A stretch of 64,000 nt of DNA from assembly GCA_040387495.1 (NCBI GenBank), contig JAZKDQ010000001.1, forward strand, positions 62,001-126,000. The letters run 5' to 3'. This stretch comes from Pseudomonadota bacterium. GTDB lineage: Bacteria; Pseudomonadota; Alphaproteobacteria; Paracaedibacterales; CAIOTO01. Below, piece after piece: positions 28,564 to 32,387 of this stretch; position 1 is the first letter of the stretch, and each line of letters opens with the position of its first letter. Under the pieces are notes generated by a model. That model saw only the letters and a list, made by a program, of their open reading frames with translations. It did no database searches and was not told the DNA's origin. A program made the translations under genes and the position numbers.

Positions 28564-29040
28564 TTACTTTTTACGAAACGCATCAAGTGTTACGACGTTT
28601 GTTTCACCTTCGGCTAAAGGCTTTATTTCTTTTTTCTCAGGCTCAAGTAAAACTGATAAATCAAGCTCTTCATATGAATCGAGTGAAGGAGTGAACTCCA
28701 GCCCAAAATTCACTGACGGATCTACAAATTTGATGACAGCATCAAATGGAACAACGATACGTTCATCTGCATTGTCAAAACTTAGTGTAACAGCAAAAAA
28801 AGTATCATGAATTTCTAAATCCCAGTATTCATGTTGCAAAACGATTGTCATATCTTCGGGATAATCTTCTCGCAAAAACTCTGGAATTTGAACGCCAGGA
28901 TAGTTTGTTATAAAATCGATATAAAAATGATGTTTTCCTGGAAGGCCATTTTTTGCAACATCTATTAAGACATCACGCATAACCTTGCGAATGGCGGTTT
29001 GCACCAGCTCTTCGTAATTGATTATGTCATTTTGCTTCAC
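28564..29040 (-). CDS. sspB: ClpXP adaptor SspB (alphaproteobacterial type)
   Basis: LPG.HHFYI.F, YPE.MTIVLQH, DPSV.FGL.F, C-terminal VVTLDAFRKK ClpX-binding tail. Confidence 0.95.
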   Translation of the reverse strand: MKQNDIINYEELVQTAIRKVMRDVLIDVAKNGLPGKHHFYIDFITNYPGVQIPEFLREDYPEDMTIVLQHEYWDLEIHDTFFAVTLSFDNADERIVVPFDAVIKFVDPSVNFGLEFTPSLDSYEELDLSVLLEPEKKEIKPLAEGETNVVTLDAFRKK

Positions 29041-29066
29041 AAGAAATCTCCTTAAGTATTTATTTA

Positions 29067-29433
29067 GTGAGGGGCATTCTGTTGCCCGGGGCCCCCCAAA
29101 CCGCTACTGGAAAACCACTGTATTATTCGTAAAACGAACTTTTAAGCAGCTTTAGCTACTACGCGACGTGTGCGGTTGCGGTTAGCAACGTTACGGTTAC
29201 GGTTTGCTGTGCGTGTTTGACCACGCCCACCAGTTGAAGAAGTACGAATTGTGCCTCTTATAAGTTTCAGTCCGATAACGGTGGTACTATGCCGAGCAAA
29301 ACGAATATCTTTATTACGCACGTCGATCCTGTTTCGTCCCCATAAAAAAGACTTGGTGGAGACGCCGGGTACCGCCCCCGGGTCCGCAACGCCTATTACA
29401 TAGACGGTTTATTGCCATAGATAGTTTCCTATC
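29067..29433 (-). ncRNA. ssrA: Circularly permuted (two-piece) tmRNA; outer ends approximate
   Basis: Piece ending GACCCGGGGGCGGTACCCGGCGTCTCCACCA (CCA at 29356-29354), 12-nt spacer, then piece starting GGGGACGAAACAGGATCGAC at 29341; acceptor stem GGGGACG/CGTCTCC with G3-U70; upstream of sspB. Confidence 0.95.
29142..29255 (-). other. tmRNA tag reading frame: GTIRTSSTGGRGQTRTANRNRNVANRNRTRRVVAKAA*
   Basis: UAAGA immediately before GGC (U-5/A-4 resume signal); open frame ending GCT GCT TAA. Confidence 0.75.
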
Positions 29434-29490
29434 AATACTAAAAATAGTCCTTTTTTAAAAAAATTCAAGGTATTAATTGAGAATAATGAA

Positions 29491-30741
29491 TCATTTTCTA
29501 GAAATAGTTAAAAGTGGTAATAAAAACAACCATGTTGCCCACCACCAAGATTGCCAAAAACCAATACTAAAAAGTATAATCATCATATTTGATGTAAAAA
29601 AGGCAAACGCGACTTTACGTGCCGGTGTTTGAAGCTGTCTGATTTTCTCAATGAGGAAAACAAGCAATGCTGTCCACCAAAGCACACCAATAAGACCAGA
29701 TTCTAACCACCATTGTAAAATTACATTATGTGGGTGGTTTGGAATTTGTTTTCCAACAATTGGGTTTTGAAGCGTGCCTTCTCCGTTTTTAAATTCATAA
29801 TAAAAAGGTTTTGTAATAAATTGCCCCCCGACTTCATCTTGTGTGCCAGCATTAAGGCCAAAACCAACCCAAGGGCGTTCCATAATTTTTTGGCTGGTAT
29901 ATTGCCAAACATGAAGCCGATGAATGTAGCTATAGGAATGAAGAACTTTGTTGATTTCATAAATATTCTTATCTGTAAGAAATATATTAAAAATAAATGG
30001 AAGGCTTAGGCATATAATGAGGACTTTTGCTTGGATAAAACGCCAAAATAATTTGGATTCAATGGATGCTATACCATAGGCACATAGACTTAGAAGTAAG
30101 CTTACGATTGCAGTATCACAATCCAAAATAGGCATGATGACCATGAGAATTGCGCAGAAAATCCCAACTTTCCAGAAAGGTTGATTATAAAGTACTGGCC
30201 ATATAGCAATAGATATGGTCATCCCAACTTTTGATAAAACTAATGCACGGTTTTTTCCAATTTTTTCAGCTGAAGCAACTAGCAGGCTCCCACAAAAACA
30301 ATCAATGATAATAATTAGGCAGCAAACAACGATGCCATAAAAAAGAAAGTTGTGTAGTTTTAAAGTTGTTGAAGTGTGTTTATGGTTGTGAAGTGCATGC
30401 CACCATAAAAAACCACCTGTTAACATGCTACATACTTGCAGCTCAATAAAATGATCCCCATATGGTCTGAAAAAATCAAAAAAAGTAATAAAGATAAGTC
30501 CATAGTTTAAATAGAGTTCGAATGAAGATTTTGGTTTTATTTGATTTATAATTATTTGATTAACATCAAGCGGTGTCCATAATTTTCGTAAATATGAGAT
30601 TGACCAAATGCCCGATAATGTAAGAATAACTACGGCGTATCGTTGAAAAAATAAAACAAGCGGACACAGGATAAATATAAGAACAGCTGGAATATACCGG
30701 TCAAATGGTATGTTCTTAAATGATTGGCACGATAGTTGCAT
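29491..30741 (-). CDS. O-antigen ligase family membrane protein
   Basis: S..HRLHVW, ERPWVGFG, HPHNVILQWWLESGLIG, WQSWW. Confidence 0.85.
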   Translation of the reverse strand: MQLSCQSFKNIPFDRYIPAVLIFILCPLVLFFQRYAVVILTLSGIWSISYLRKLWTPLDVNQIIINQIKPKSSFELYLNYGLIFITFFDFFRPYGDHFIELQVCSMLTGGFLWWHALHNHKHTSTTLKLHNFLFYGIVVCCLIIIIDCFCGSLLVASAEKIGKNRALVLSKVGMTISIAIWPVLYNQPFWKVGIFCAILMVIMPILDCDTAIVSLLLSLCAYGIASIESKLFWRFIQAKVLIICLSLPFIFNIFLTDKNIYEINKVLHSYSYIHRLHVWQYTSQKIMERPWVGFGLNAGTQDEVGGQFITKPFYYEFKNGEGTLQNPIVGKQIPNHPHNVILQWWLESGLIGVLWWTALLVFLIEKIRQLQTPARKVAFAFFTSNMMIILFSIGFWQSWWWATWLFLLPLLTISRK

Positions 30742-30779: not shown

Positions 30780-31553
30780 ATGTCTGATCTTTTAAGTAAA
30801 TTAAAAGTTGTTGTTCCAAACCCAAAGGTTTCTGTGCAAAAGCCAAATATTATTTTGCTATCACTTCAAAAAATTCAAGAAGAACAATTGAGTGTTTCTT
30901 CGCAAAATATGGCGAACGCAATGCATGCAGGTTTTAAGGGCTTTATTTTATCATCTCAAGAATGTGTTTATAAAACGAATGATAAGAAAAAGGTTTCATA
31001 CGTTAAATCTGCTGGTATGACGCGGGATTTATCAGATGGTGCGTTAAATATGACGCGTAATCCATTGGATTTTGCATTGTCGGGGCCTGGTTATTTTATG
31101 GTTCAGACTGCAAATGGAAAGCGTTACACGCGAAATGGTCGATTCACGTTAGATAAAGAAAGCCGATTGACCACATCTTCAGGACAGCCTGTATTAAGTC
31201 AAACAGGAAGTGAAATCATAATTCCCAAAGATATTCAATACTTCACGGTATCTCGTGATGGCACGATGTTTATTAACGGTAATAAGGCCGGAAAACTTGG
31301 CGTGGTCGAGTTTAAGAATGAGCAAGCCATGCGTCTTGAGGGATCAAGTCTTTTATCAAGTAAAGAAGATGGAACGCCAGGAATAAAAGGGCTTATCACA
31401 CAAGGTGCTTTTGAAGAATCAAATGTATCAGTGATGGATGTAAGCATTAAATTAATTAATATAATGCATAGATTTGAAGAAGCTCAATTGTTAATAAAGC
31501 AATATGAAGAACTACAGAAACAGACAATGAATGCTTCTGCTAAGAATGTGTAG
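30780..31553 (+). CDS. flgF: Flagellar basal-body rod protein FlgF
   Basis: NMANA...GFK, T.NPLDFALSGPGYF.V, YTRNGRF, QG..EESNV; precedes flgG. Confidence 0.85.
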   Translation: MSDLLSKLKVVVPNPKVSVQKPNIILLSLQKIQEEQLSVSSQNMANAMHAGFKGFILSSQECVYKTNDKKKVSYVKSAGMTRDLSDGALNMTRNPLDFALSGPGYFMVQTANGKRYTRNGRFTLDKESRLTTSSGQPVLSQTGSEIIIPKDIQYFTVSRDGTMFINGNKAGKLGVVEFKNEQAMRLEGSSLLSSKEDGTPGIKGLITQGAFEESNVSVMDVSIKLINIMHRFEEAQLLIKQYEELQKQTMNASAKNV

Positions 31554-31586: not shown

Positions 31587-32387
31587 ATGAGTATTAATAA
31601 CGCATTTCATGTGGCACGAACTGGCCTTCAGATGGCTGAAAAGAATCTTGGTGTAAAAGCGATGAACATCGCTGGTCAAAATGCCGATGGTTATAAAAAG
31701 CAATATATGATTACTCTCGACCTACCTTATATAGATCAAGGTGGAGTTGGTACAAGTACGTCTAATAACAATACAATTTCACCTACTGGTACGCAGATTG
31801 GTCTGGGTGTTCAGTCGGGAGGTATTTATCGTGATTTTTCACAAGGTGAGAGTATTCAAACGAGTAACTTTTTGGATGTAATGGTAGATGGAGAAGGTTT
31901 CTTCCAAGTCACTATGCCTGATGGAAGCACAGCTTACTCACGTGTTGGTGCATTTCAATTAAGTCCAAATAATGAAATTGTGATGCCTAAAACTGGCTAT
32001 GTAGTCGCACCAGGTATTACGTTGCCAACAGGAACAACAGATGTATCAATCAATGCTCAGGGTCAAGTCTATGCTAAGGTCTCTGGTTCCACTGCTCAGG
32101 TGCTAGTTGGACAATTCCAGCTGGCTACATTTTTTAATACATCAGGCTTAAAGGCAATTGGTGATTCCATGTTTCAGGAAACGCCTGCATCAGGTACGCC
32201 GGATGTTGGTGTTCCAGGTTCAAGTCGACGCGGTAATATTAAGCAAGGCTGGCGTGAAGGCGCAAACGTTAATGCGGTTGAAGAAATGACTGATCTAATA
32301 AAGATTGAAAAAATATATGACATGCTCACTAAAATTCTTAAAACAGGTGATGCCATGATGACGGCTGCTACAAGTGTTGGGCGTTAA
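31587..32387 (+). CDS. flgG: Flagellar basal-body rod protein FlgG
   Basis: PTG.QIGLGV, GEGFFQV.MPDG..AYSR.GAF, GLKAIG...FQETPASG. Confidence 0.92.
   Translation: MSINNAFHVARTGLQMAEKNLGVKAMNIAGQNADGYKKQYMITLDLPYIDQGGVGTSTSNNNTISPTGTQIGLGVQSGGIYRDFSQGESIQTSNFLDVMVDGEGFFQVTMPDGSTAYSRVGAFQLSPNNEIVMPKTGYVVAPGITLPTGTTDVSINAQGQVYAKVSGSTAQVLVGQFQLATFFNTSGLKAIGDSMFQETPASGTPDVGVPGSSRRGNIKQGWREGANVNAVEEMTDLIKIEKIYDMLTKILKTGDAMMTAATSVGR

Follow-up and report, generated by a model that had tools for sequence, protein, structure and literature searches.

A two-piece tmRNA gene with a long, basic tag frame and repeated AN.N units, shared across an order of small-genome alphaproteobacteria

The two-piece ssrA gene and its tag frame

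The minus strand of a 64,000-nucleotide stretch of an alphaproteobacterial genome (positions 62,001 to 126,000 of contig JAZKDQ010000001.1, order Paracaedibacterales in the GTDB lineage; hereafter the window, whose own numbering is used throughout) carries at 29066..29472 (-) a permuted, alpha-type gene for transfer-messenger RNA (tmRNA), ssrA, with a predicted tag of 37 residues. A preliminary description of the window, made from its letters alone, had read a two-piece tmRNA at this place and proposed that Infernal be run on it; the search bears this out, with the alpha_tmRNA family RF01849 matching 29066-29472 (-) at 207 bits over the full model (1-355), against a gathering score of 50, and the tmRNA_permuted family RF04321 matching 29142-29416 (-) at 118 bits. 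The source genome, which is 99.92% complete, has one RF01849 match and one RF04321 match, so that this gene is its sole tmRNA; a search of the same genome with RF00023 gave nothing above the cut-off, the best hit (41.8 bits) being of tRNA size.

The Rfam alignments divide the gene into two pieces. The acceptor piece (29354..29416, -) holds the 3' half of the tRNA-like domain, the T arm, the 3' acceptor strand CGUCUCC and an encoded CCA (29354-29356), its 5' limit being the start of the RF04321 match rather than a mapped end; the acceptor-strand sequence at 29354-29364 (-) is CGUCUCCACCA and ends CGUCUCC-ACCA. Between this CCA and the coding piece lies a 12-nt intervening segment, AGUCUUUUUUAU (29342..29353, -), which by analogy with the family is expected to be cut out on maturation. 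The coding piece (29066..29341, -), delimited from the Rfam alignments and the sequence, comprises a 5' GGGGACG, the pseudoknot-1 region, the tag frame and a 3' tail. Its GGGGACG (29335-29341) pairs with CGUCUCC, so that an acceptor piece with T arm and CCA lies upstream of a coding piece whose 5' end pairs with it, as a circularly permuted gene should have it. The third of these pairs is G:U (G3:U), and a G:U third acceptor pair is a mark of alanine charging. The region of the tag frame folds no better than its shuffles (z -1.03), which fits an mRNA-like stretch. On the strength of these matches the locus at 29066-29472 (-) is judged to be a genuine alphaproteobacterial two-piece tmRNA.

Misassembly of the region, which the preliminary description had named as something that would undo its reading, is unlikely, because contigs from the RNA libraries of two other studies match it without difference and because the same ssrA layout is found in six congeneric genomes. 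The RNA-library contigs match over their whole length, a 244-nt contig at 29089-29331 and a 191-nt contig at 29131-29321, with 0 differences and with the full tag frame included. They cover the coding piece; none spans 29332-29352, and the uncovered parts carry no meaning. A DNA run also matches 28908-29183.

The frame at 29255-29142 (-) translates to GTIRTSSTGGRGQTRTANRNRNVANRNRTRRVVAKAA, 37 residues followed by UAA, which is identical to the arginine-rich, acid-free peptide first proposed from the letters: there are nine Arg, one Lys and no Asp or Glu, giving a net charge of +10. The frame-setting sequence UAAGA (29256..29260, -), with U at -5 and A at -4, directly precedes the resume codon GGC (Gly; 29253..29255, -), which in the alignment stands opposite GCA, the resume codon of the Rfam consensus, and occupies the resume position in 10/10 tags of the window's family. 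In Escherichia coli the five nucleotides UAGUC that precede the resume codon are described as setting the frame, with A86 (position -4) as the main and nearly invariant determinant (PMC2481249). Judged by the rule drawn from that account, the window's site has what is expected, namely a codon starting with G, an A at -4 and a frame open to Ala-Ala and a stop; the 3' end reads GCU GCU UAA, encoding a peptide that ends VAKAA, with the Ala-Ala end of an ssrA degron, before the stop codon UAA (29142..29144, -).

Within the peptide, an N-terminal extension of 23 codons, GTIRTSSTGGRGQTRTANRNRNV (29187..29255, -), contains a first ANRNR unit (29193-29207), and the C-terminal 14 codons, ANRNRTRRVVAKAA (29145..29186, -), contain a second (29172-29186) together with the Ala-Ala end, spaced as in ordinary tags of alphaproteobacteria. 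The layout of the peptide is thus that of a canonical-looking 14-residue core behind a 23-residue basic extension that holds another AN.N unit. The two ANRNR units differ at three third positions, all synonymous (GCA AAC CGT AAC CGT versus GCT AAC CGC AAC CGC), and since these are their only differences the duplication is judged to be old, with both copies held at the peptide level. Arg is encoded by CGT or CGC in 63/64 cases in the tags of the window's family, and Asn by AAC in 5/5 cases in the window tag, against 27% AAC in the 660 long open reading frames of the genome.

A mechanical list of open reading frames also contains a 59-codon frame with a GTG start at 29142-29321 (-), which arises when the tag frame is simply prolonged upstream into the pseudoknot region, and which a gene caller could annotate as a hypothetical protein.

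Tags of the order and of the class

For comparison, loci from genomes of the same order were combined with loci found by similarity to SspB, the ClpXP adaptor for ssrA-tagged proteins; 122 loci were examined and 96 gave a tag. Among these are 56 distinct long frames, which have 18-59 codons and come in 24 different lengths. This set of 56 was defined as the tags of at least 18 residues among loci L001-L126, which makes it circular for length, although not for frame, end or motif, and one of its members (L017) is mis-anchored and carries three extra codons. Independently of tag length, 42 loci of 41 genomes were placed in the same order. All 41 of these genomes have a tmRNA gene, and the tags of all 42 copies have 18-59 codons, two of the genomes (G004 and G005) having tags of 36. 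The group is named, by the titles of the closest SspB loci, as Candidatus Paracaedibacteraceae, Odyssella thessalonicensis, Paracaedibacter symbiosus, Finniella and 'Holosporales' metagenome-assembled genomes.

Read in the frame that the resume site sets, all 56 long frames are open, and 52 of them end in Ala-Ala, whereas the alternative frames contain stops in 47/56 (+1) and 55/56 (+2). The gaps in a nucleotide alignment of the tags of the genus are of 3, 9 and 12 nt. In 22 close pairs, differences over the whole tag fall at codon positions 1, 2 and 3 in the proportion 90/84/163, with 92 synonymous and 143 non-synonymous codon differences; for the extension alone, taken as the part upstream of the last AN.N unit, the counts are 50/46/101 with 58 synonymous codon differences. 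The excess at third positions, the whole-codon gaps and the retention of the frame over 24 lengths are together consistent with an N-terminal extension that evolves as a peptide.

The preliminary description had taken ANRN for a duplicated, charge-reversed ANDN, and the relatives speak for a descendant of ANDN that has been duplicated and has lost its acidic residue. Across the 56 tags there are 86 occurrences of AN.N, where 2000 composition-preserving shuffles gave 10.0 +/- 3.0 and at most 21, and 35/56 tags have at least two units. The variable residue of these 86 units is Arg in 26, Ser in 22, Asn in 14 and Asp in one, and the residue that follows the unit is Arg in 45. In 37 of the 48 tags that have a unit, the last one is placed 11-17 residues before the C-terminus, and ordinary tags of 10-12 residues carry their single ANDN in this same register.

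Charge varies more than architecture does. A net charge of at least +5 is found in 33 of the 56 distinct tags, and the window tag at +10 is second only to that of a congener at +11, yet relatives with the same tag architecture range from 0 to +11, and those of 50-59 residues, the longest in the order, are close to neutral. In length the window tag is typical of the order, in which 23/56 distinct tags are longer than 35 residues and the maximum is 59. The preliminary description had set the tag against the usual short, acidic tags of alphaproteobacteria and had named long basic tags already being common in the lineage as something that would refute it; the 42/42 long tags and the 33/56 strongly charged ones show that they are common there, and a long, mostly basic tag with repeated AN.N units is, as judged from the predicted frames, an order-wide trait and not a singular oddity. 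In one genome bin (G032, 70% complete), two full-length alpha_tmRNA genes lie on different contigs (L023 and L032) with tags of 34 and 59 residues, which could be due either to a mixed bin or to a real duplication.

Outside the order, one genome was surveyed for each alphaproteobacterial family. A tmRNA gene was found in 149/151 sampled genomes, a tally that includes the unpublished genome G079, on which no other result rests. Of 142 loci fetched, 140 gave a tag (L267 and L268 did not), and 126 of these tags have at most 16 residues and are nearly all of the ANDN type. Extraction across the class was heuristic: five long calls are uncertain (L236, L243, L257, L215 and L263) and four others (L155, L255, L214 and L233) are mis-anchored upstream of an ordinary ANDN tag. 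Nine other families have credible tags of 20-33 residues (L247, L248, L196, L238, L230, L235, L246, L227 and L192), several with two AN.N units and some rich in Arg (e.g. L247 and L248). The genomes of these nine measure 0.8-2.1 Mb, and tags of at least 20 residues outside the order occur in 9/56 families with genomes of up to 2.1 Mb versus 0/86 with larger ones, a comparison whose threshold was chosen post hoc and which ignores phylogeny. Long tags may be a recurrent trait of reduced genomes. In a tree of SspB, the 54 rows with long tags group together as a single clade, with a Shimodaira-Hasegawa-like approximate likelihood ratio (SH-aLRT) support of 97 in a quick tree, and an ultrafast bootstrap (UFBoot) of 94 and SH-aLRT of 78 in a careful one, and the long or short state changes once or twice on the tree; the doubling of AN.N therefore seems, from these sequences, to date from the base of the order.

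Automatic detection fares poorly on these genes. Of the two programs proposed for checking the window gene, Infernal finds it, but ARAGORN (version 1.2.41, run on 28801-29700) reports no tmRNA by default, and with relaxed thresholds (-ps) gives a +1-frame peptide, ATAHVA, with two stops after it and the message 'Tag not identified'. On the genes of the 56 distinct relatives the default run finds 37, and the full tag is returned in 19/56 by exact match, or 20/56 if the anchor of L017 is corrected. Since ARAGORN misses or shortens them, annotations and tag lists are likely to understate these tags, and automatic tag lists for this lineage are likely to be wrong.

Neighbouring genes and the degradation machinery

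The gene for SspB (sspB, 28564..29040, -) begins 25 nt downstream of ssrA on the same strand (Pfam PF04386, E 3.4e-42) and is single-copy in the source genome. Its product matches the solved Agrobacterium and Caulobacter structures in the PDB (2nys at E 4e-38; the Caulobacter SspB entries 2qas and 2qaz at E 5e-30), and its C-terminal NVVTLDAFRKK, conserved in the alignment, would by analogy with the family be the ClpX-binding tail. Genes for RimP and NusA come after sspB. An sspB adjoins ssrA in 38/42 relatives' loci, and of the four loci that lack an adjoining copy at least one genome (G007) has it slightly further on (L123). This neighbourhood was reportedly first found in alphaproteobacteria by Lessner et al. 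in 2007. A 151-nt contig from a freshwater RNA library (X16) matches 28953-29103 without difference, running from the 3' end of ssrA into the start of sspB, a match that would fit read-through from the one into the other, although it is no proof of it.

The source genome encodes ClpX (662 bits), ClpP (279 bits, adjacent to clpX), Lon (1001 bits) and, on contig C6, SmpB (PF01668, E 2.1e-47, in an open frame of 168 codons), in addition to SspB; the clpX, clpP and lon genes are intact. With regard to the adaptor site, the window tag has AN.N in the right register upstream of the ClpX site, with Arg in place of Asp.

Just upstream of ssrA lies a gene for a Wzy_C (O-antigen-ligase-like) membrane protein (29491-30741, -), and beyond it two adjacent genes of the FlgF/FlgG flagellar rod type (30780-31553 and 31587-32387, both +; Pfam PF22692 and PF06429). 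These rod genes sit in a genome of 1.66 Mb, and the lineage of the source genome is known mainly as symbionts of protists.

Reading of the tag and the role of its extension

Starting from the gene identity, the conserved frame, the type of substitution, the repeated motif and the partner genes described above, we infer how tagging would proceed, where it would resume and which proteins would read the tag. Most probably the tag works as an SspB/ClpXP degron of the ordinary kind to which a basic extension specific to the lineage has been added, and is read from GGC through all 37 codons. SmpB-tmRNA would enter a stalled ribosome, translation would resume at GGC (29255), five nucleotides after U-5/A-4, and reading to UAA would add an Ala and the 37-residue tag to the rescued protein. 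The last 14 residues, ANRNRTRRVVAKAA, would be the working degron, in which ClpX takes the terminal Ala-Ala and the SspB encoded next door probably docks on the AN.N unit 14 residues from the end. The 23-residue lead-in, a low-complexity, Arg-rich and lineage-specific sequence, would have arisen by internal duplication of AN.N and by insertions, and would be kept as a peptide while evolving fast in sequence and length; its main role may be that of a flexible spacer. In E. coli, each subunit of the SspB dimer is described as binding the tag's initial seven residues while its tail binds the N domain of ClpX, and inserting residues between the SspB and ClpX sites as strengthening delivery (PMC9963277). 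Given that in that system SspB binds the tag, its tail binds ClpX and longer spacing aids delivery, SspB on AN.N, ClpX on Ala-Ala and a flexible lead-in would make the simplest mechanism.

Several points weigh against this reading. That the tag is made, and where it starts, is predicted from sequence, and the RNA-library contigs, although compatible with expression of ssrA, cannot prove transcription, strand or ends. Recognition by SspB is an assumption, because the Asp of ANDN has been replaced (Asp occurs in 1/86 units). The 22 close pairs are not mutually independent, so that the significance of the codon-position counts is overstated, and the A at -4 in the relatives is no independent evidence, since it was built into the pattern by which their resume sites were searched. 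The first 16 codons of the window frame are open in all three frames, and openness alone is therefore no proof that this part is read. ARAGORN, moreover, shortens 17 of the 37 genes that it finds to an in-frame tag from an internal site, as in the call ANGNRTRRVVAKAA in a congener, and in the congener L038 takes the matching C-terminal 14 residues for the whole tag.

These last points bear on where translation resumes. Were it to resume at an internal AN.N unit, the tag would be ANRNRNVANRNRTRRVVAKAA (21 residues, the fallback allowed for in the preliminary description, from the first GCA) or ANRNRTRRVVAKAA (14 residues), and the in-frame stretch upstream would be an untranslated leader. The C-terminal 14 residues do by themselves resemble a complete alphaproteobacterial tag, ARAGORN's choice of such sites in 17/37 genes and the 16 open codons are in keeping with this, and yet we consider it improbable. 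Neither internal candidate has an A at -4, the GCA being preceded by GCACA and the GCU of the second unit by ACGUU. The stretch upstream shows the third-position excess and the 58 synonymous codon differences of a coding sequence and changes length by whole codons, with 24 lengths keeping the frame from the canonical site, features for which an untranslated leader would have no reason; the 21-residue version is disfavoured on both counts. A reading from GGC, at the canonical position five nucleotides after U-5/A-4, in a conserved frame and with coding-type substitution, is the most likely one, and translation of the whole 37-codon frame can be predicted with good confidence. Much the least credible is a short peptide in another frame such as the ATAHVA of ARAGORN's relaxed run. 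Its site is preceded by UAACC, which does have U-5 and A-4; against it, the program itself declares no tag, the peptide lacks an Ala-Ala end, the Val-Ala codons GUA GCU create the +1 stop incidentally, and the relatives have no conserved +1 peptide, their +1 frame being closed at varied places in 47/56.

If the whole frame is read, the extension may do more than space the two sites. It could serve adaptor delivery, as a second SspB docking site or as a charge-matched interface with an altered SspB, making a degron of the avidity type; we hold this to be unlikely, though several observations speak for it. The AN.N unit recurs and its copies are conserved as peptide, and SspB forms a homodimer in which each subunit has one tag site and for which spacing residues strengthen delivery in E. 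coli (PMC9963277). At SspB position 71, in the best-conserved motif, Glu is found in 96-98% of 55 in-order sequences versus Gln in 82% of 33 outgroup sequences, the motif being LQHEYWDL or LQ(H/Y)E(F/Y)WDL in the order versus one containing Q(F/Y)W.L in most other alphaproteobacteria; positions 8, 58, 74 and 90 are likewise more acidic in the order than in the outgroup, and in L086, the only long-tag row with Gln71, the C-proximal unit is NDN. Glu71 may match the loss of Asp from the ANDN unit, and the rewired adaptor interface suggested in the preliminary description is possible for the window tag. As a partner of the variable residue in AN.N, however, position 71 was set aside: the association is suggestive, but four outgroup rows (L108, L113, L115 and L141) break it by combining Glu71 with ordinary ANDN tags. 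The charge of the SspB domain was also tried as evidence of co-change with the charge of the tag, and the correlation (Spearman -0.23, p 0.04, n 76), which ignores kinship and uneven domain lengths, is too weak to be of use. In the window, furthermore, the two ANRNR units start seven residues apart, probably too close for both sites of a dimer. That tag and adaptor changed together, with ANDN becoming a repeated basic AN(R/S/N)N(R) and SspB becoming acidic, including a change of Gln71 to Glu, to give a charge-swapped multivalent degron with two or three docking sites, is a speculative proposal to which we give a small share of our confidence.

Two further proposals place the meaning of the extension outside the ClpXP route. 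Long tags have been tied to a switch of protease in Mycoplasma and Mesoplasma, which lack ClpXP and in which, according to a review, the long Mesoplasma tag is specific for Lon (PMC8138137). Although Lon is encoded in the source genome, a switch of this kind is very unlikely here, as it fails on its defining feature: ClpX, ClpP and SspB are present and intact, the Ala-Ala end is kept and sspB is linked to ssrA in 38/42 loci. The preliminary description had also raised an extra role in binding nucleic acid or the ribosome, or in targeting the rescued proteins to another fate. For this the composition speaks (net charge +10, nine Arg and no acidic residue), and nothing else that we found; there is no conserved motif in the tags besides AN.N, and the range of charge among relatives of the same architecture, down to near neutrality in the 50-59-residue tags, leaves the idea barely plausible.

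Measured against known systems, and with the ordinary SspB/ClpXP degron as the preferred reading, the window gene is closest to the two-piece tmRNA and SspB of Caulobacter crescentus, with which it shares the permuted gene order, the tRNA-like domain, the resume context, an Ala-Ala end preceded at about a dozen residues by an AN.N unit, an sspB beside ssrA, and ClpXP. It departs from Caulobacter and from the alpha_tmRNA consensus in that the tag is about three times longer (the consensus frame of Rfam has 12 codons), the resume codon encodes Gly and not Ala, the Asp of ANDN has become Arg, the tag contains a further AN.N unit and a linker rich in Arg, and the net charge is +10 where those tags are slightly negative. 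The E. coli tag AANDENYALAA is likewise described as a two-part degron, bound by the adaptor upstream and by ClpX at the C-terminal Ala-Ala (PMC9963277), with a frame set by U-5/A-4 before the resume codon (PMC2481249), but it is encoded by a one-piece RNA and has 10 encoded residues and an acidic character, versus two pieces, 37 residues and a strongly basic character here. To Mycoplasma and Mesoplasma the likeness is that of a long tag in a reduced genome; as the review has it, ClpXP was lost and the protease changed there (PMC8138137), whereas the window genome keeps ClpX, ClpP, SspB and the Ala-Ala end.

Among the papers searched, none was found that ties this lineage to tmRNA tags, the top Holosporales papers naming tmRNA at most once. 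Tag lengths of 8-35 amino acids are given in a 2021 review (PMC8012679), and the 2025 paper on a tmRNA database, in the extracts at hand, gives 10 as the commonest length and discusses very short tags only, while the text of its supplement makes no mention of Holosporales, Rickettsiales, Paracaedibacter or ANRN (PMC11915505). What emerges is a whole order of small-genome alphaproteobacteria with tags of 18-59 codons, 23/56 of them beyond the 35-residue upper limit of the review, in which mostly strongly basic tags coexist with an ordinary ClpXP/SspB machinery. If tag and adaptor did change together, the resulting multivalent degron would work differently from the E. coli and Caulobacter models. 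The tags of the order form a natural series for asking what an adaptor must see in a tag, how far the sites for adaptor and protease can be separated, and why long tags occur in reduced genomes.

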